Source: a virus
Strand: one strand, 5' to 3'
Length of the DNA stretch: 64,000 nt
Virus record (IMG/VR): IMGVR_UViG_3300045115_000211
Location: 1-64,000 of that record
A program made the position numbers and the translations under genes. The notes under the pieces were generated by a model. That model was not told where the DNA came from and made no database searches. It saw nothing but the letters and a program-made list of their open reading frames with translations. The stretch's first letter is position 1; every line of letters begins with the position of its first letter. This document shows, piece after piece, positions 4,261-23,432 of the stretch.

Positions 4261-4999
4261 TCCGGACATCAGAAGGTTGATGCGCCCTCGGAAACTGGAC
4301 TTCTGCAGGATCATTCCCTGCGTGCCGGGGGCGAAGCCGTGGACTCACCCCGACGTCAAGTCGTCCAGGTTCCCGTTCAGGCCGATCCCCCTGTCCGAGA
4401 TGCCGTGGGTTGACCTCAAGGACTACCACGTGGCCGCCGTCGAGCACATGGCGAGTGCCTACAGGCTCTACTGCTACTACGGCGATCCGGCGTGCAAGGG
4501 CGTCTTCCGCGGCGACGACATGCTGGTCTGCGAGTCGATCCCCGTTGAGGACGAGCACGCCCGGTTCAGCGGCATCCTGCTCTACGACGAGCACGAGTAC
4601 GAGCGCGCCGTCAGGGACTGGAAGTCGTACTGGGACTGGATCGAGAACCGCAACCCCAACAGGTGGCTGGACCAGGAGCGTGGCAACCTGACCTTCGACC
4701 AGAAGAACATGACGCACTGCGTAAGGCTGCTCTGGTCCGGGCTGAACATCGTCAGGAACGGGGAGCCGATCGTCAGGTTCGACGGGGAGCAGCTCGGATA
4801 CCTGATGGCCTTGCGGACGGGCAGGATCACGGACTACGAAGCCGTCATGGCGAAGGTCGAGGGGCTCGTCGCCGAGATGGACGAGGCCGCCAAGACGTCC
4901 CCGATCCCGGAGTCCATCGACGAGGCGGCGGTCGAGGGTCTGCACGCGGAGGTGTCGCGGATGGCGTGGGACAGGCTGTTCGGGGAGAAGGTGGCATAG
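4241..4999 (+). CDS. nucleotidyltransferase, C-terminal half (start 4241 or 4280)
   Basis: LDFC...YWDWIENRNPNRW...FDQKNMTHCVRLL...LMALRTG, the C-terminal region typical of this NTase family. Confidence 0.8.
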   Translation: MDCHLDDPDIRRLMRPRKLDFCRIIPCVPGAKPWTHPDVKSSRFPFRPIPLSEMPWVDLKDYHVAAVEHMASAYRLYCYYGDPACKGVFRGDDMLVCESIPVEDEHARFSGILLYDEHEYERAVRDWKSYWDWIENRNPNRWLDQERGNLTFDQKNMTHCVRLLWSGLNIVRNGEPIVRFDGEQLGYLMALRTGRITDYEAVMAKVEGLVAEMDEAAKTSPIPESIDEAAVEGLHAEVSRMAWDRLFGEKVA

Positions 5000-14562: not shown

Positions 14563-17133
14563 TCACGAGCAGTTGGACGTGCCGCAGATCAGGCACGACG
14601 GGCACCCGCCCTTGTAGACCATCTTCGCCGCATGGCAGTTGGGGCATTCGAGACCGGAGTTCTCCCCCTCCTCGATGTACGACTTGAGGACACGGGCCAA
14701 CGCCCTGTTGTAGGACTGGAAGTCGTCCTCGGGATCCTTCGTGAGCTGCTCGCAGACGAACTTGATGGGGACGCCGTGCCTCAGGCCGAGGCTCACGATG
14801 CGCGAGAACGTGGCGTGCTCGTAGTCGGAGAAGACCTTGGCGATGTTGTTGATCACCATCCTCTTGGTCTCGCCGTCGTTCTCCAGGGCCCCCAGCACGA
14901 GGTCGTACATCGTGCGGTCGCCGTGCTTTCCGTCCTTGAGTATCCAGCCCGTCTTGAACTTCCTCGGGACCTCAAGGTCCTCGCTCTCCCCGCCGAACAC
15001 CTCGTACGGCTGGCCCTTGAGCTTGCCGACCAGGAAGACCCACTGCGAGGACTTGTCCTTGCCCCTGCCCTTGACCGTCGTCCTGACGATGTCGCATTCG
15101 AGCACTTCGGGGCGCTTCGGCGCCGACGACATGATGACGCGCCCCGGACGCCCTCCCTGCTTGACGAGCGCCTTGAACTTGTCGGCGGCGTCGTCGCAGT
15201 TGTCGCAGTTGCCGTTCTGCGACCCCTTGGACACGAGGATGCCCTCGCGGCTCCCCTCGCGGTAGACGGTGATGCCCTTGCAGCCGAGCTCCCATGCGTC
15301 CATGTAGATCTGGGCGACCGTCTCGATGGCGACGTCCTTCGGCAGGTTGACCGTCGAGGAGATCGCGTGGTCGACGAATGCCGTGGCGGCGGCCTGCATC
15401 CTGACGCGCCTGGAGTGGTCGATCTCGCCGGCCTGCGCCCCGGCGTACGGGCTCTCATCCATCCCCTTGCCCGTGACCTTGCAGAACAGCCCGAGCCCGG
15501 GGTGCCTGACCTCGAAGTGCCTGTACCTCTCTCCGTCGCTGCCCACGGAGTCGGCGTCGCCCTTGTCGCCGGCGACCATCTTCTTCTTCCGGACGTACGA
15601 GGCGAGGAACACCGGCTCGAACCCCGACGTCGTGCCGTAGTTGCCGTCGCTGCACCACGTCAGGTTGCTGACGGTCCCGGCGGGGGCGGTCGTCAGGCAC
15701 GCGATGTTGCGGCGCCCGTGCCTCGCCATGTCTTCGAGGACGTCCTTGGGCAGCCTGGAAAGGAACGGGTGCCCCTTCTCCCTCTTGGCGTCGAACAGCG
15801 GGAACTTCCCGCGCTCCTTGGCGAGGACGACGGATTGCCTGTAGGCGTTGTCCCTGAGCGCGGCGTAGACCTGCTCGACGAACCCGACCGACGCGTCGTC
15901 GCCGTACTTGTGCCCCAGCATCGCCACGGCGTCGCCGAGGGCGGTGATCCCCAGCCCCGTCCTCCTGCCGCTGACGCACTTGTCCCTGACCATCCTCCAG
16001 AGAGACAGCTCGTTGGCCTTCACGTCGGGGGGCTCGGGGTCGGCTTCGACCTTGGCGATGATGCGCTCGACGCTCTCGATCTCGATGTCCACGAGGTCGT
16101 CGGTGATCCGCATCGCCATCCCCACGTGCCTGGCGAACAGCTCGAAGTCGAACCTCGCCTCCCTGGTGAACGGGTCGATGACGTAGGAGCAGAGGTTGAG
16201 GACGACGAGGATGCAACTGGAGCCCTCGGCGAGCGGCAACTCACTGCACGGGTTGGTCGTGACCGTGGCGAAGCCGAGGTCGGAGTAGCAGTCGGCGGGG
16301 CTGTTGCGGGTGATGCTGTCCCAGAACAGGACGCCCGGCTCGGCCTTCAGGAAGGCGTGCTTGACGATCTCGTCCCACACCTCCTTCGCCGAGATCCGTG
16401 ACCGCATCGATGGCTTCTCGGCATCGACGGGCCACCGCAGCTCGTAGTCCTTGCCGGTCTTCACCGCCCGCATGAACTCGTCCGTGAGGCGCAGCGAGAT
16501 GTTGGCCCCCGTGATCGCCGCCAGCTCCAGTTTGGAGCGCACGAAGCTGAGCACCTCCGGGTGGTGGACGGAGCACGAGATCATGAGCGCCCCGCGCCTC
16601 CCGTGCTGCGCCACCTCCTTGGAGGTGTTGGAGAAGCGCCGCATGAAGACGATGACCCCGTCGGTCGTGTGGGCGGCGTTGTGGGTCGGCAGGCCCTTCG
16701 GGCGTATGGGCGACACGTCGATGCCGACGCCGCCGCGGCGCTTGCTGATCTGCGCTATGCGCTCGTCGGCGCGGCAGATCCCGCCGTAGCTGTCCACCGT
16801 GGCGATGGCGAAGCAGTTGGACTGCGACACGATCTGGTGCGGGTTCCCCACGCCGAACATCGGGCTGCCCTGCGGCACGACGTGCTTGAAGTCCTTGAAC
16901 AGGGCGAAGATGTCCTGCTCGGACATGGGGTTGGGGTATTTCCCCTCTATCCTCGCGAACTCCCTGGCGAGCCGCCTGTGCATGTCGGCGGGCGTCAGCT
17001 CGTGGTACTTCCCTCCGTTGTCGCGCAGCGCGTACTTCTTCGTCCAGATGTCCGCCGCCAGCTCGTTGCCACCGAAATACTCAAGGGCAGCGGCGTGCAC
17101 CTCCTCGAACTCATGGGGCTTCTTGTCAGGCAT
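14563..17133 (-). CDS. nrdJ: adenosylcobalamin-dependent (class II) ribonucleotide reductase
   Basis: KYAL, PQGSPM, SNCF, RGGVG, GRRGA, TNPCSE, APAGT, CKGITVYR; C-terminal CPNC...CLICGTSNC. Confidence 0.93.
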   Translation of the reverse strand: MPDKKPHEFEEVHAAALEYFGGNELAADIWTKKYALRDNGGKYHELTPADMHRRLAREFARIEGKYPNPMSEQDIFALFKDFKHVVPQGSPMFGVGNPHQIVSQSNCFAIATVDSYGGICRADERIAQISKRRGGVGIDVSPIRPKGLPTHNAAHTTDGVIVFMRRFSNTSKEVAQHGRRGALMISCSVHHPEVLSFVRSKLELAAITGANISLRLTDEFMRAVKTGKDYELRWPVDAEKPSMRSRISAKEVWDEIVKHAFLKAEPGVLFWDSITRNSPADCYSDLGFATVTTNPCSELPLAEGSSCILVVLNLCSYVIDPFTREARFDFELFARHVGMAMRITDDLVDIEIESVERIIAKVEADPEPPDVKANELSLWRMVRDKCVSGRRTGLGITALGDAVAMLGHKYGDDASVGFVEQVYAALRDNAYRQSVVLAKERGKFPLFDAKREKGHPFLSRLPKDVLEDMARHGRRNIACLTTAPAGTVSNLTWCSDGNYGTTSGFEPVFLASYVRKKKMVAGDKGDADSVGSDGERYRHFEVRHPGLGLFCKVTGKGMDESPYAGAQAGEIDHSRRVRMQAAATAFVDHAISSTVNLPKDVAIETVAQIYMDAWELGCKGITVYREGSREGILVSKGSQNGNCDNCDDAADKFKALVKQGGRPGRVIMSSAPKRPEVLECDIVRTTVKGRGKDKSSQWVFLVGKLKGQPYEVFGGESEDLEVPRKFKTGWILKDGKHGDRTMYDLVLGALENDGETKRMVINNIAKVFSDYEHATFSRIVSLGLRHGVPIKFVCEQLTKDPEDDFQSYNRALARVLKSYIEEGENSGLECPNCHAAKMVYKGGCPSCLICGTSNCS

Positions 17134-17371
17134 TTTGTCCTCTTTCGACGTGCGTGACGGCGCCACATTCTACAACCGGCAGGCGCCGCCCGAGGCGCCA
17201 TCGCCGGTCATCCGGGGGTCACGTCGACAGACCTTCCCTTATGGGGTACTGAAGAGTTCTTCTCCGGAGCGGCGGTCCCACCCAATCCCCATGGGGCACC
17301 TTTTTTGACAGAACAACCACCCACTGAAGTCAAGCGGCCGGAGGGCCGCAAGGCCCCTGTATAATGGGCCC

Positions 17372-18349
17372 ATGGCAAGCGACTTCACGGTTGCGTCCCT
17401 GTTCTCCGGGGCCGGTGGGATGGACATTGGCTTCGAGAAGGCGGGCTTCCACGTCGTCTGGGCGAACGACATCGACAAGGACGCGTGCGAGACGCACAGG
17501 CGGTGGTCGTCCGCCGAGGTCGTGTGCGCCGACGTGTGCGCCGTCGGAGCCACTGCGATGCCCAGGACGGACGTGATCGTCGGAGGGTTCCCGTGCCAGG
17601 GATTCAGCCTCGGCGGCCCGCGCCAGGTCGACGACGGGCGCAATGTGATGTACAGGCACTTCGTGCGCTGCGTCGGGCACCACCGCCCCCTCGCCTTCGT
17701 GGCGGAGAACGTGCAGGGGATCCTCTCGATAGGGGGAGGCACGGCGGTCGTGCGGAAGATCATGGGCGACTTCGAGGACCTGGGGTACGTCGTCGTGAAC
17801 CAGACGCTCGACGCCAGCCGCCACGGAGTCCCGCAGGAGCGCCTCCGCGTCATCTTCGTCGGGCTGCTCAAGGACGCCTTCGGCATCGCCGGAGGGGAGG
17901 AACTCGGGGACTACGAGAGCCCGTTCAGGTTCCCCGAGGATGACGACGGCCGCTCGCCGATGTCCGGCGTCCTCGCCGGGATTCCCGATCCCGACCCCGC
18001 GGACGTGTGCATGGACAGGTTCTCCCCGCGGTACATGAGCCGCAACAGGAGGAGGGACTGGATGGAGCCGTCGTTCACGATACCCGCGATGGCCAAGCAG
18101 GTCCCCCTGCACCCCTCGTCCCCGCCGATGAGGAAGGTCGGCAAGGACGCGTGGGAGTTCGGCGACGGCGAGACGAGGCGACTGTCATGGAGGGAGGCGG
18201 CGCTCGTGCAGACCTTCCCGGCAGGGCTGGAGTTCGCCGGCGACCTGAGGTCGAGGTACAGGCAGGTCGGCAACGCCGTCCCCTGCGCCCTGGCGGAGAG
18301 GGTGGCGCGCAGACTGATGTCCGCCATGGTCAGGGCTCGACCGCGGTGA
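17372..18349 (+). CDS. DNA cytosine-5 methyltransferase
   Basis: LFSGAGG, GFPCQGFS, ENV, PQERLR, QVGNAVP. Confidence 0.95.
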   Translation: MASDFTVASLFSGAGGMDIGFEKAGFHVVWANDIDKDACETHRRWSSAEVVCADVCAVGATAMPRTDVIVGGFPCQGFSLGGPRQVDDGRNVMYRHFVRCVGHHRPLAFVAENVQGILSIGGGTAVVRKIMGDFEDLGYVVVNQTLDASRHGVPQERLRVIFVGLLKDAFGIAGGEELGDYESPFRFPEDDDGRSPMSGVLAGIPDPDPADVCMDRFSPRYMSRNRRRDWMEPSFTIPAMAKQVPLHPSSPPMRKVGKDAWEFGDGETRRLSWREAALVQTFPAGLEFAGDLRSRYRQVGNAVPCALAERVARRLMSAMVRARPR

Positions 18350-19373
18350 CGGCAAGCCCGTCCAGCCAGACCTCGACGGCGCTCCTGTTCGCGCGGCGCA
18401 GGCCGCGCCTGTTGAGCCACACCCCGAGCGCGCCCAGCCGCCGGGCGATCCCCATCGTGGCGACCATGTCGTCAAGGTCGTTGGGATCCGCATGCAGGGG
18501 CCACGACATCCAGTAGATGTCCTCGGACCCGACCGTGGGCAGCCCCGCCGCCACCATGTCGGCCGCGACGATGTTGAAGGTCTCCGTCAGGGAGACCTGC
18601 ATCCCCAGATCCATCGGCGGCAGCACGCAGTAGACCAGCCTGTCGTGCGGGTACCACGGGTGCTCGACGAGCCTGTGGCCGCCGCTGGCGTCGAACATCG
18701 CCCGCAGGTTCCGCACGACGCGGTCCCCGCCCTGCTCCTCGCGCCCGTGGTTCACGTGGAAGGCGACCTTCCTGCCGATCCGGCTCGCGAACATGATCGC
18801 GGCGGCGGCCTGGGCGTAGTGGTTCTTGAGCGGCCTGATGGCCCCGAAGCAGGCCACGTTCAGGCGGCAGGGATCGAGGTCGACGATGATCGGCTCCTCG
18901 GGCGGAGGGGGCGCGACGTAGGCGTTGGGCAGCATCATGGACCGGCACCCGAAGACGTCCCGCATGAGCTCGTCGGTCTCGCGTGAGTTGGCCGACATCC
19001 ACAGGTTGCGGAGGAACGCCTGGAGCCCGGAGTAGGCGGCGATCCATTCCGACGCTATGCCCTCCATCGCGAGGAACGGCGGCTTGCTGTGGACGCGCAC
19101 GTTCCACGACACGCCGCGGTGCCTGCGGCACAGCTCCTCCAGCTTGTCCGGCGTGACCCAGAGGGCGTGGATGACGACGTGGGTCGGGCGGTGCTGGCAG
19201 ACCACCCTGTCTATGCCGTTGGCGTCGACCACGGCCTCGACCGTCGCCTCCACTCCGTGGCGGTTGAGGATGGAGGCGAGCATCCTGGCGGAGTTGAGAA
19301 GGCCGAACGATATGCCGTAGGAATCGACCCTCTTCTTGCACACGAACAGGACCTTGAAATCGCGCTGTGGCAT
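18330..19373 (-). CDS. GT-B glycosyltransferase
   Basis: FGAIRPLKN, QVSLTETFNIVAAD...GLPTVGS. Confidence 0.75.
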   Translation of the reverse strand: MPQRDFKVLFVCKKRVDSYGISFGLLNSARMLASILNRHGVEATVEAVVDANGIDRVVCQHRPTHVVIHALWVTPDKLEELCRRHRGVSWNVRVHSKPPFLAMEGIASEWIAAYSGLQAFLRNLWMSANSRETDELMRDVFGCRSMMLPNAYVAPPPPEEPIIVDLDPCRLNVACFGAIRPLKNHYAQAAAAIMFASRIGRKVAFHVNHGREEQGGDRVVRNLRAMFDASGGHRLVEHPWYPHDRLVYCVLPPMDLGMQVSLTETFNIVAADMVAAGLPTVGSEDIYWMSWPLHADPNDLDDMVATMGIARRLGALGVWLNRRGLRRANRSAVEVWLDGLAVTAVEP

Positions 19374-19512
19374 CGTGGTTACTCCCAAATGGCGCTGTTG
19401 GCGTGCGGCATCTGGCTCCTCTCGGACCCCTCGTGCCGCCTCACGCATAGTGCTTGCATGGCCCGTGGTCGATTCCCTTCTTTTCGCTGTACAATGCCAG
19501 CGGGAGGCTCGC

Positions 19513-20046
19513 ATGCTGCTGTACCACGGCACGAACATGGACAACGCCCTTGCCATACTTGGCAAGAACAGGGACGGCTTCTTCGGCGCCGGGACGTGGT
19601 TCGGCAGCGCCCTTGAGGTCGCCCTCATCTTCGGCGGGGAGTGGGTCTTCTGCGTGTTCCTGGACCCCACGCCCGGATGGGCCAGGATGGACGGGGTGAC
19701 GGATTGCGGCGAGAGGCAATGGCAGTGCAGGAACCCGGAGCCGCTGCCGTCGTACGGCAACGTCATATGGCTCAGGAGGTTCTCCTCGGAGTTGCTGGTC
19801 TGGGGGGACGTCGCGAACGAGAGGCTGCGAGCCCACCACCAGAGGATCGTCAACCCAGGCAGGACGATGTGCGTGGACTGCTCCGGGCACGGGGAGGTCG
19901 GCCCAGGCTTCGACGGATTCATGCGGGACTGCTATGTGCGCCGCTCCATTCCGAGGCCCCACACGGAGATCTGCGGGCGGTGCGGCGGGTACGGAGCCTT
20001 GGGAGTCAAGGAGGAGATGGACGCCGGCCTCGTCAGGCGAAGATGA
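19513..20046 (+). CDS. hypothetical protein, LYHGT (ART-like) N-terminus and CxxCxGxG Zn finger
   Basis: MLLYHGT...GTWF; CVDCSGHG...CGRCGGYG. Confidence 0.5.
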   Translation: MLLYHGTNMDNALAILGKNRDGFFGAGTWFGSALEVALIFGGEWVFCVFLDPTPGWARMDGVTDCGERQWQCRNPEPLPSYGNVIWLRRFSSELLVWGDVANERLRAHHQRIVNPGRTMCVDCSGHGEVGPGFDGFMRDCYVRRSIPRPHTEICGRCGGYGALGVKEEMDAGLVRRR

Positions 20047-21230: not shown

Positions 21231-21304
21231 TGGTTGCCCCGACCGGGTTCGAGCCGATGCGAAGGCCTTCAAAGGGCCTCATGCTGCCATTACATCACGG
21301 GGCA
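21231..21304 (-). tRNA. tRNA-Gln(UUG)
   Basis: TGCCCCG/CGGGGCA acceptor; AGGCC-CTTTGAA-GGCCT anticodon arm; encoded CCA. Confidence 0.92.
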
Positions 21305-21310
21305 TTCGAA

Positions 21311-21384
21311 TGGCTGCCCGAAGAGGATTTGAACCTCTACCGACTGAGTCAGAGTCAGTCATGCTACCGTTACACCATCGGGCA
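21311..21384 (-). tRNA. tRNA-Gln(CUG)
   Basis: TGCCCGA/TCGGGCA acceptor; ACTGA-CTCTGAC-TCAGT; GGTTCAAATCC; CCA. Confidence 0.95.
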
Positions 21385-21391
21385 ATCGCTA

Positions 21392-22213
21392 CTACTTATG
21401 CTTGGTTTCCCCCAGTATTCTACTGATCGTACTAGGGTCATATCCGAGTTGTTTGGCTATTTCCGTTTGAGTCAAGCCGTCATTCCGCAGACTCTGTACC
21501 AAACCCCGATCAGCCGGCCTACGCACCTTGTGTGGACACAGTTTTCCGACGATGCCGCTTATGGCTCCCTTGGAATACCCCAGCCTTTTCGCAATAACGA
21601 TCTGTTTGACTCCCATCCTGTAAAGCCTAACCACCTCTTCCTTGTTAGCTGGCTTCGGCTTCTCGCGATACGACGTCATCCGAGTTTCGATCACGTCCCA
21701 TAGCCTAGTCAAGCGTTCTGCGTTCACGTGTTTCTTGGCATGACAGTTCGAGCATATGACGGTGCACTTGTCGAGTTCTGCTAGGACATCCTCCCAGTCT
21801 GCCTTGATTTGTCGTGTCGCAAGGGCGCTTATTGAGAACGCTTTGTCGCCATGATGGTGGAACTCCAAACTTGAACACCCAATATCTGTATGTCCACATT
21901 CCGAACACGCCTTTGCCCCAACCAAACGCAACAGGTTCTGCCTTGCAAGGGCGTTCCTTCCTGGATTGGCATGCAACCTTTCATGACAGTTGGAACAGAG
22001 AAGTTCGCACTTTTTAACCTCGGCCTCAATGACGCTCCATCTCGACCACTTGATGCTGTTGATGCCTGCCGACTTCTCGTTCGGATGGTGGAACTCCAAG
22101 CATCTGATGTCCGATTCGCCACACCGCTTGCATCGGTTTCCCAGCAGGCTGGCTGCGATCCTCTTCTTGGCCCACACCAGCACGAACGACTGATCCGTCT
22201 TACTAAGTTGCAT
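21392..22213 (-). mobile_element. double-HNH homing endonuclease with C-terminal HTH domains, inside the tRNA cluster
   Basis: CKRCG...LEFHH...CELLCSNCH occurs twice; AAGGAG RBS; lower GC. Confidence 0.85.
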
Positions 22214-22278
22214 GTTTGGGTCTCCTTCGCCGTTTATTCGAGAGACCCGAACCTGAAACCCTCCTATGTCAAAGAACA

Positions 22279-22377
22279 TGGCTGGCTTGGCAGGACTCGA
22301 ACCTGCACGCACGCCCATTTACGAGCGTCACGGATCGCTTAACAGGCGATTCCCTTACCAGTTAGGGCAACAAGCCA
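22279..22377 (-). tRNA. tRNA-Asn(GUU), atypical, 27-nt variable arm
   Basis: TGGCTTG/CAAGCCA-G-CCA; ATCGC-CTGTTAA-GCGAT; GCAGG-TTCGAGT-CCTGC. Confidence 0.85.
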
Positions 22378-22390
22378 ATCCTTCTCATTC

Positions 22391-22467
22391 TGGCAGCCAG
22401 GACAGGACTTGAACCTGCAGTCTCCTCCTCAACAGGGAGGCGGGATACCATTCCCCTCCACCTGGCT
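22391..22467 (-). tRNA. tRNA-Asn(GUU), atypical D region and G37
   Basis: AGCCAGG/CCTGGCT-G-CCA; CCTCC-CTGTTGA-GGAGG; GCAGG-TTCAAGT-CCTGT. Confidence 0.85.
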
Positions 22468-22477
22468 ATCGAGCCTT

Positions 22478-22515
22478 AAAACATTTCGGCCGCCGAGCAT
22501 CCCTGCCCGACGGCC
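22478..22515 (-). terminator. putative attenuator terminator hairpin (3:4)
   Basis: GGCCGTCGGGCA-GGGA-TGCTCGGCGGCC, a 12-bp stem (2 G-U), followed by GAAATGTTTT. Confidence 0.65.
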
Positions 22516-22540
22516 CACCCTAGTCGCTGGTCAGCAGAAC

Positions 22541-22606
22541 TCAACCAGCCGGGTGCCCGTCGGGCGTCCGGTTTTGCTGGTTGTTATTCTGGATGACAGC
22601 GATCAT
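22541..22606 (-). CDS. Gln/Asn-rich leader peptide MIAVIQNNNQQNRTPDGHPAG
   Basis: seven consecutive Gln/Asn codons (CAG AAT AAC AAC CAG CAA AAC) between the promoter and the tRNA-Asn/Gln genes. Confidence 0.8.
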   Translation of the reverse strand: MIAVIQNNNQQNRTPDGHPAG

Positions 22607-22632
22607 GTTCTTTTCCGTCCTCGCAATGGGAT

Positions 22633-22661
22633 AGTATGCCGGAAACCCCGTCCCGCGTCAA
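22633..22661 (-). promoter_or_regulatory. sigma70-type promoter of the tRNA operon
   Basis: TTGACG-17 nt-CATACT. Confidence 0.7.
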
Positions 22662-22670
22662 CGGCTTTGT

Positions 22671-23432
22671 TCAGGACATCGAGATCATCCAACCGCCGGC
22701 GCCGAGCGACGCCGCATGCGGCAGCCCTGCGGCGGCGAGGCCCTCCTCGAACCTCTCGCGGTCGGACGGCGTCTGGCACATGGCGTCCCTGATCCTCGCC
22801 ACGTCGTGGGCGTGGCCGAGGCGGAAGCCGATCGCCACGAGGTGCCACGCCAGGCGCGTGTCGTTGACCTCGTAGGCCCCGTCGCGCCTGCGGATCGCCC
22901 TGATCCCCTCGCCGAAGCTCAGCGTCTCGGCCACCTCGGGGCCTATCCGCACCGGGAGGCGGAAGCGCAACTGGTGGTGCCATTTGTTCGTGCCCTCGGG
23001 CGACACCTCGAAGTTGGGGTCGCCGCCAGGGTCGACGCCCGCCAGGGACTGGTATCGTCTGGCGACCTGTATCTCCTCGTCGCTGGGGACCTGGGCGTGG
23101 AGGTTGGCGCACCCTGCGAGCAGGGCGACCGAGAATATCTCCTCGCTCCCCCTCGTGAGCGTCGGGCGCACGCCTTGCTCGCGGAGCCTCTCGTTCCTCA
23201 TCCGCCTGATGACCCTGCCCTGGTCCTCCATGTCGAGCCTTTGGGTCTCCCCGACGTGGTCGCCGCCGACGTACTCGACGTCCATCATCCCGCTGGTCGG
23301 GAGGATCGCCATGACCATGTACTCGCCCTTGTGGTTCGACTGCGTCTCCCCGGTGGCGAACGTGACGTCAGGAGTCCTCTTGCAGGTGTATTCGTCGGCG
23401 AAGTCCCCTTCGGCTATCCTGAGCATGCGCAT
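22671..23432 (-). CDS. hypothetical protein (MRMLRIAE N-terminus)
   Basis: long ORF with GC-biased codons; GCAGG-N19-GAAA upstream. Confidence 0.6.
   Translation of the reverse strand: MRMLRIAEGDFADEYTCKRTPDVTFATGETQSNHKGEYMVMAILPTSGMMDVEYVGGDHVGETQRLDMEDQGRVIRRMRNERLREQGVRPTLTRGSEEIFSVALLAGCANLHAQVPSDEEIQVARRYQSLAGVDPGGDPNFEVSPEGTNKWHHQLRFRLPVRIGPEVAETLSFGEGIRAIRRRDGAYEVNDTRLAWHLVAIGFRLGHAHDVARIRDAMCQTPSDRERFEEGLAAAGLPHAASLGAGGWMISMS

Follow-up and report, generated by a model that had tools for sequence, protein, structure and literature searches.

The linear 113,194 bp contig IMGVR_UViG_3300045115_000211 from IMG/VR has a GC content of 64% and an estimated completeness of about 62% (CheckV), and its first 64 kb, referred to here as the window, includes a short leader followed by four tRNA genes and an HNH endonuclease gene. 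Leader, tRNA and HNH coordinates are window positions and refer to the minus strand unless marked otherwise. The four tRNAs are the only ones in the whole contig and all are for Asn or Gln: two tRNA-Asn(GUU), a tRNA-Gln(CUG) and a tRNA-Gln(UUG), on which ARAGORN and Rfam agree (42.8-63.6 bits). Genes on both sides of the leader region are on the minus strand, and upstream of the leader promoter is an orphan gene coding for a 278-aa protein, which ends at 22671 on the same strand. An initial annotation, made from the sequence alone, had described the leader as an attenuator that senses Asn and Gln decoding and controls the tRNA genes; every coordinate and pairing that it gave checks out, and the observation itself is confirmed, from the promoter and the 21-codon open reading frame (ORF) to the identity of the four tRNAs.

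The leader starts with a sigma-70-like promoter in which TTGACG (22661-22656) and CATACT (22638-22633) are separated by a 17-nt spacer and nine of the 12 consensus positions are matched; the surrounding 19 kb contains eight such TTGAC-type sites where 2.2 are expected. Transcription is predicted to start at approximately 22627-22626, which places the leader ATG about 20 nt downstream. The leader ORF (22606-22541) has 21 codons followed by TGA (22543-22541), reads MIAVIQNNNQQNRTPDGHPAG, and has no earlier in-frame start between the preceding stop codon and the ATG at 22606. A Shine-Dalgarno (SD)-like GAGGA (22618-22622, minus strand) is positioned 11 nt before the ATG, with a GGA 7 nt before it.

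Within the ORF are seven tandem Asn and Gln codons, CAG AAU AAC AAC CAG CAA AAC (22591-22571), coding for QNNNQQN. All three anticodon species of the downstream tRNAs are sampled (CAG twice, CAA once and AAU or AAC four times), so that the match between control codons and tRNAs put forward in the initial annotation holds for 7 of 7 codons. When the contig is read in all six frames (226 kb in total), this is the sole run of at least five Asn/Gln codons; runs of at least four number just two, this one of seven and another of four, and the number of runs of at least seven expected from the contig trinucleotide frequencies is 7e-5. The run is rich in A and C (12 A and 6 C in 21 nt), and by our own calculation a composition null for such a tract gives a probability of approximately 2e-5 per frame that all seven in-frame codons specify Asn or Gln; AAA (Lys), the codon most favoured by this composition, is absent. 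The run is 104 nt from the first tRNA and upstream of the only tRNAs of the contig. Because the correspondence is beyond chance and the only tRNAs present are for the same amino acids, a functional link between the leader ORF and the tRNAs is very likely; what the link does is less certain. No second copy of the leader is found in the contig, and a search of the 261-nt leader against Rfam at E values up to 10 finds no T-box, known amino-acid leader or small RNA family.

Folding with ViennaRNA reproduces the three mutually exclusive pairings, designated 1:2, 2:3 and 3:4, that had been proposed for the leader. The minimum free energy (MFE) structure of the 165-nt leader (-71.6 kcal/mol, z = -4.36, with none of 200 shuffles as stable) consists of a long 1:2 hairpin together with the 3:4 hairpin. 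The 1:2 hairpin (22602-22524, -40.1 kcal/mol) has a core at 22583-22542 (-21.9 kcal/mol), in which CAACCAGC (22583-22576) pairs with GCUGGUUG (22549-22542) around inner CGG/CCG and GCCC/GGGC helices, and it joins the control codons to the last part of the ORF, stop codon included. The alternative 2:3 structure, a putative antiterminator (22565-22504, also -40.1 kcal/mol), is composed of three stacked helices, the 9-bp GCCCGACGG/CCGUCGGGC, CACCC/GGGUG and GCUGGUU/GACCAGC, the first of which ties up 9 of the 12 nt of the 5' arm of the terminator-like 3:4 hairpin. The 3:4 hairpin itself (22515-22488, -23.5 kcal/mol) has a 12-bp stem and a GGGA loop; it is the strongest terminator-like site in the 19 kb, is among the approximately nine most stable perfect hairpins of the contig, and is followed by the tail GAAAUGUUUU (22487-22478), which ends in the 20-nt region before the first tRNA-Asn.

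The order of folding and the position of a ribosome both influence which of these structures forms. In co-transcriptional snapshots 1:2 is the first to form. When a stalled ribosome is modelled as a 30-nt mask at A-site codons 7-10 and the RNA ends before segment 4, the MFE structure is the 2:3 antiterminator, the outcome that the initial annotation had anticipated for masking of segment 1. The UGA is inside segment 2, and a ribosome mask at the stop codon covers that segment and leaves 3:4 in the MFE structure. A first antiterminator test, in which segment-3 bases paired upstream were counted, is passed by 78% of shuffles and is not discriminating, since an unpaired GC-rich 12-mer almost always has something to pair with. 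A switch metric was therefore defined as the energy gained by upstream pairing of the terminator 5' arm with a stalled ribosome minus that with no ribosome. Upstream pairing contributes -10.5 kcal/mol without a ribosome and -16.7 kcal/mol with a stalled one, a switch of -6.2 kcal/mol; when the intervening 55 nt are dinucleotide-shuffled 600 times, the stalled value is attained in 2.2% of cases and the switch in just one (0.17%). Applied unchanged to two Escherichia coli leaders the metric recovers the known antiterminators, with switches of -8.6 for thrL (0 of 300 shuffles) and -1.7 for trpL (7%), and the phage leader falls between the two. At equilibrium the terminator wins in the presence of the mask (P = 0.99), but it does so in thrL and trpL as well (P = 1.0); the equilibrium behaviour of the phage leader is therefore not evidence against a switch, and control must be kinetic, as it is in those textbook leaders.

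We also note that in the full-length MFE structure the start-codon region AGAACAU (22611-22605) pairs with AUGUUUU (22484-22478), in what would be the U-tract. The start codon would thus be hidden in a leader that is terminated or unprocessed.

The two tRNA-Asn(GUU) genes that follow the leader differ in size and both are unusual. The first (22467-22391, minus) is 77 nt long and has A1:U72, G73, G37 and an imperfect D stem with a mismatch; tRNAs reading ANN codons usually carry A37, and the usual terminal pair is U1:A72 instead of A1:U72. The second (22377-22279, minus; 46.8 bits against the Rfam tRNA model) has the usual U1:A72 and G73 and is 99 nt long, with a variable region of approximately 27 nt that forms a 6-bp stem. 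Long variable arms normally mark Ser, Leu, Tyr and Sec tRNAs. The tRNA-Gln(CUG) (21384-21311, minus) and tRNA-Gln(UUG) (21304-21231, minus) genes, each found by both ARAGORN and Rfam, are separated from the Asn pair by a lower-GC gene (22213-21392, minus) that codes for an HNH endonuclease with two C-terminal helix-turn-helix domains and is a mobile homing cassette inserted within the tRNA cluster.

The initial annotation had treated the tRNAs as a single tRNA-Asn/tRNA-Gln operon, and in this the serial arrangement of the four genes stands but their continuity does not, as the mobile HNH gene, which that annotation does not mention, splits the two pairs. No sigma-70 promoter is found ahead of the HNH gene, and no strong minus-strand hairpin is present between 22478 and 20948; expression of the tRNA-Gln genes probably still depends on read-through from the leader. 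The tRNA-Gln(UUG) 3' end is followed after one base by the ATG of a gene for a 93-aa protein of no known family (21229-20948, minus), which leaves no room for an SD outside the tRNA, so that the tRNAs and mRNA genes are probably part of one transcript and read-through probably continues from the tRNAs into the downstream mRNA genes. Elsewhere in the window a recurrent motif, GCAGG-N19-GAAT, is seen at six sites (6309, 8806, 20950, 25888, 30954 and 41406) where 1.03 are expected, a number reached in none of 100 shuffles, and is a candidate for a phage-specific promoter. For the HNH gene, at 22213, there is just a near match to the motif, GGAGG-N20-GAAT.

Our preferred interpretation, to which we assign a probability of roughly 0.55, is that the leader is a ribosome-mediated leader-peptide attenuator that senses Asn and Gln decoding and gates the phage Asn and Gln tRNA genes. 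Among the five features by which an attenuator was judged, four are found here, namely a short ORF near the transcription start, cognate tandem codons, mutually exclusive folds, and a stop codon where a ribosome masks segment 2; for the fifth, an intrinsic terminator, there is just a candidate, a strong hairpin whose tail (T-score 0.33) is non-canonical by E. coli rules. We infer from these features that the ORF is translated, that transcription terminates at 3:4 and that the leader responds to tRNA shortage. A plausible sequence of events is that transcription would begin at the TTGACG-17-CATACT promoter and a ribosome would start on the 21-codon ORF. With plentiful Asn- and Gln-tRNA the ribosome would reach the UGA and cover segment 2, or would depart and allow 1:2 to form; segment 3 would then be free, the 12-bp 3:4 hairpin would form, and some polymerases would stop approximately 7-10 nt behind it, before the first tRNA-Asn. 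With scarce tRNA the ribosome would stall within QNNNQQN, covering segment 1 but not segment 2, so that 2:3 would form first and hold 9 of the 12 nt of the terminator 5' arm. The polymerase would then read through the tRNA-Asn pair, the HNH gene, the tRNA-Gln pair and the downstream mRNA genes, and the fresh tRNA would end the stall, closing a negative-feedback loop. Because the controlled genes are tRNAs and not biosynthetic enzymes, such a loop would sense tRNA supply or decoding rather than amino-acid supply. The contig contains no gene for an Asn synthase, a class-IIb synthetase of the AsnRS/AspRS class or a GatA-type amidase, and therefore nothing on the phage links Asn and Gln metabolically.

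The codon match, the folds and a switch like those of thrL and trpL support the attenuator interpretation of the initial annotation, but the terminator tail, the SD and the expectation of an uninterrupted operon do not, and these and several other points weigh against it. The shortness and offset of the U-tract had been noted as a caveat from the start: the tail GAAAUGUUUU has four U and is offset by 6 nt from the stem, its d'Aubenton-Carafa T-score is 0.33, and by our own arithmetic the combined terminator score is below a threshold that is derived from E. coli. In E. coli thrL and trpL, 8-9 U directly follow the stem, and in the one canonical-looking terminator of the contig (99329-99360, plus strand) UUUU comes immediately behind the stem. 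Where release is expected, seven of the nine positions of the RNA-DNA hybrid would be A/U, and partial termination in the A/U-rich stretch behind 3:4 is conceivable. The leader SD is modest, a GAGG(A) whose long spacing of 11-12 nt puts it in the tail of a noisy SD-spacing distribution for the contig, and the tRNA cluster is interrupted by the HNH gene between the Asn and Gln pairs. GC-rich RNA offers many alternative pairings, as the failure of the first crude pairing test to discriminate illustrates. Asn and Gln are not enriched among phage-gene codons (2.4% and 2.6%, respectively), with AAT and CAA being rare, and the tRNA arrays of distant jumbo phages described below show no codon-matched leaders in a crude window test. 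Finally, no relative carrying the leader is found in phages, IMG/VR, JGI metagenomes, GTDB genomes or a set of 5.8 billion proteins, in searches that may have passed over very close records.

The same codon usage figures leave codon compensation, considered separately as a reason for the phage to carry these tRNAs, without direct support.

The poor U-tract is more readily accommodated if the leader is a translated Asn/Gln sensor with another output, such as termination by Rho, pausing of the polymerase, or an effect of RNase E or RNase P on how the pre-tRNA is processed and how stable it is. The codon statistics and alternative folds apply equally to such a sensor, a mere 20 nt separates the hairpin from the 5' end of the tRNA, the tail is A/U-rich in the manner of an RNase E site, and pairing of 22611-22605 with 22484-22478 links the two ends of the leader. 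No specific Rho or RNase signal is seen, however, although no search was aimed at one, and a stop codon in segment 2 and a 9-bp competitor for the 5' arm are exactly what control of termination needs; together with an A/U-rich 9-nt hybrid that could still permit partial termination, this leaves a different output decidedly unlikely. We find it unlikely too, if a little less so, that the arrangement is a coincidence, in which an untranslated structured 5' leader, a small RNA or the terminator of the 278-aa gene happens to include an A/C-rich run that serves as an unpaired linker or protein-binding tract. The weak SD and U-tract, the absence of relatives with this leader from the collections searched, the many pairings available to GC-rich RNA and the low complexity of the run (12 A and 6 C in 21 nt) would all fit this explanation. 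What it does not accommodate is a run restricted to Asn and Gln codons in the ATG frame (approximately 2e-5 given its composition, with 7e-5 expected genome-wide) and specifying just the two amino acids that the contig's four tRNAs serve; in addition, the run is paired in the MFE structure as segment 1, the promoter sits between the 278-aa gene and the hairpin, and there is no Rfam match at E values up to 10.

An intact ATG-started ORF just after a promoter-like site might alternatively code for a small functional peptide unrelated to tRNA control, but its 21 residues include no hydrophobic or other recognisable peptide feature, it falls entirely within a set of hairpins in competition with a terminator-like stem, and the codons that it contains match the downstream tRNAs, all of which makes this explanation highly improbable. 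The complement of the inner 1:2 helix (22547-22573, plus strand) and the T-rich complement of the Asn/Gln run were also considered as an intrinsic terminator on the plus strand, for antisense or rightward transcription, with a hairpin of -17.9 kcal/mol and a T-tail score of 2.25; a separate scan detects a weaker form of it. The stem contains G-T pairs, however, the combined score by our own arithmetic remains below zero, the upstream DNA is free of plus-strand gene ends for more than 4 kb, and the ATG, the frame and the amino-acid match would be left unexplained; with a poor score and no upstream plus-strand gene, we reject this barely credible candidate.

The attenuator that we favour resembles the E. 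coli thrL (Thr/Ile), ilvGMEDA (Ile/Val/Leu), trpL and hisL leaders in having a promoter-proximal ORF, of 14-32 codons in those leaders, with tandem control codons that in thrL and ilv are likewise multivalent, and it shares with thrL/trpL-type leaders a stop codon by or within segment 2 and alternative 1:2, 2:3 and 3:4 hairpins. The thrL ORF has 21 codons, as does that of the phage leader, and the switches are comparable (-6.2 for the phage, -8.6 for thrL and -1.7 for trpL). It differs from the attenuators of amino-acid operons in that it controls tRNAs and not biosynthetic enzymes, its U-tract has four U offset by 6 nt rather than the 8-9 adjacent U of thrL and trpL, and it has neither sequence similarity to amino-acid leaders nor a match to an Rfam leader family. 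The pheM leader attenuator controls the pheST operon of E. coli, which codes for phenylalanyl-tRNA synthetase. The pheM leader too thereby controls a decoding component for the codons that it senses and not biosynthesis, but it acts on a synthetase protein, in a bacterium, and senses one amino acid, whereas the phage leader acts on tRNA genes, in a phage, and senses two. T-box riboswitches similarly couple the status of a specific tRNA to a choice between antiterminator and terminator in a leader, but they recognise uncharged tRNA by direct binding, using a specifier codon in Stem I together with a UGGN bulge, and do not involve translation, whereas the phage leader has an ORF with seven control codons. 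A T-box was considered for the phage leader and rejected: there is no match to RF00230 at E values up to 10, and an AGGGUGG-like stretch has a G where pairing with a G73 discriminator calls for C or U. Among published systems the nearest is the trn operon on a megaplasmid of Anabaena PCC 7120, an accessory tRNA array that is normally off and is switched on by impaired translation (PMC8421152, PMC10272220); its regulation is assigned to the transcriptional repressor TrcR, and neither article mentions attenuation, a leader or a terminator.

An analogous arrangement is present in a cultured phage family. In phiCbK (JX100813) rho-independent terminators annotated by the depositors are found directly before three tRNA blocks. 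At 4340-4510 a mini-ORF with QFVRQIQVVRNI and a terminator precede a Phe-Val-Ile-Ile-Val-Gln-Gln tRNA block, and gp083, which is rich in S, A, L, P, K and T, precedes a Pro-Pro-Lys-Lys-Leu-Leu-Leu-(Ala)-Ser-Ser block. In phage RBC11, which is 87% identical to phiCbK, the mini-ORF frame is kept through a 3-nt deletion, and the changes include synonymous ones and one from Ile to Phe that stays within the amino-acid set of the block itself; the terminator is identical to that of phiCbK. The phiCbK leader has z = -5.6, and a CCGGGCGGGCC stretch internal to the ORF can pair with the terminator 5' arm. These units thus share with the phage leader a short ORF rich in the amino acids of the block and a terminator immediately before it. 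They have no sequence relationship to it, however, and are more diffuse, covering 4-5 amino acids with interspersed Arg, Thr and Ala, and UUUU directly follows their stem; the leader described here is simpler, with two amino acids and 7 of 7 codons. We found no paper in the literature on phiCbK-like units of mini-ORF and terminator. That a cultured family of phages has them makes the proposed function of the leader described here more likely a priori.

A tRNA-Tyr-like stretch upstream of the phiCbK tRNA-Phe was also considered, but is not supported by Rfam.

Searches for relatives of the locus were largely negative. Comparison with phages by blastn gives generic tRNA-Gln matches only, the flanking proteins have no matches in IMG/VR, the upstream 278-aa protein matches only itself among 5.8 billion proteins, and patterns for the tRNA anticodon arms have no matches. 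The protein cluster found in the search of the 5.8 billion proteins includes a second member, on an 8.7-kb contig. The DNA pattern for QNNNQQN has 13 matches in IMG/VR, none with a tRNA nearby, and these are therefore attributed to chance. The sole relatives of any nearby gene are those of a 530-aa protein (18330-19922, minus), which in IMG/VR and JGI metagenomes are only 34-40% identical and belong to jumbo phages. Homologues at 36-40% identity (L017, L018, 10001-11041) are in the middle of 27-gene tRNA arrays of jumbo phages like Ralstonia phage RSL1. The initial annotation had suggested looking for leaders with codon runs matched to the downstream anticodons at other tRNA clusters in related genomes, and none is found at the jumbo-phage arrays L017, L018 and L022 using a crude 8-residue window test, so that such leaders are not universal at phage tRNA arrays.

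The 530-aa protein itself has no sequence match in Pfam, PHROG or PDB, and the lead from a protein atlas is a GT4-type glycosyltransferase (score 0.96). A phage-borne type I-C CRISPR array (G000 C1 80662-81870) has the repeat GTCGCTCGCCACAGGCGAGCGTGGATTGAAAC. Among genomes sampled at one per GTDB species, this repeat has no exact counterpart and the neighbouring Cas7 is without relatives, so that the host is not identified in this way. A class II (B12-dependent) ribonucleotide reductase is encoded at 14563-17166 (minus), and its best phage matches, at 38-42% identity, are to uncultured faecal phages, huge uncultured phages and crAss-like phages.

What might cause ribosomes to stall on the control codons is a matter of speculation, the proposals being cleavage of tRNAs by anticodon nucleases or limitation of GatCAB. 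The first of these is a reasonable idea in that the PARIS nuclease AriB is reported to have tRNA-Asn(GUU) as a secondary target (bioRxiv 10.1101/2025.02.04.636281), and T5 tRNA variants (Lys, Thr and Asn) are reported to overcome it. The U36-A-A-U39 motif reported near the AriB cleavage site is absent from both Asn tRNAs of the contig. A bolder and doubtful extension is that the locus is an inducible counter-defence, in which the Asn/Gln run would act as a test strip that reveals cleavage or depletion of host tRNA-Asn or tRNA-Gln during infection, a PARIS-type nuclease being one possible agent, and only then would the unusual replacement tRNAs be made; it may in that case exemplify a general, so far undescribed class of sensors of the tRNA pool that unrelated phages share.

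Attenuation through a leader peptide is a textbook mechanism in the control of amino-acid biosynthesis, and the new element here is that tRNA genes would be its targets. No published attenuator-controlled tRNA genes were found in a search of full-text literature, in which coverage of subscription journals is thin, so that the absence is not proof. The locus is an unusually clean test case, with two amino acids, 7 of 7 codons, four tRNAs and approximately 190 nt of regulatory RNA. If the interpretation is correct, phages can gauge how fast chosen codons are decoded and produce the corresponding tRNAs when these are needed, and the leader would be a compact natural sensor of specific tRNA availability. 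It would also bear on the question of why phages carry tRNAs, whether to compensate for codon usage or to replace tRNAs destroyed by host defence.

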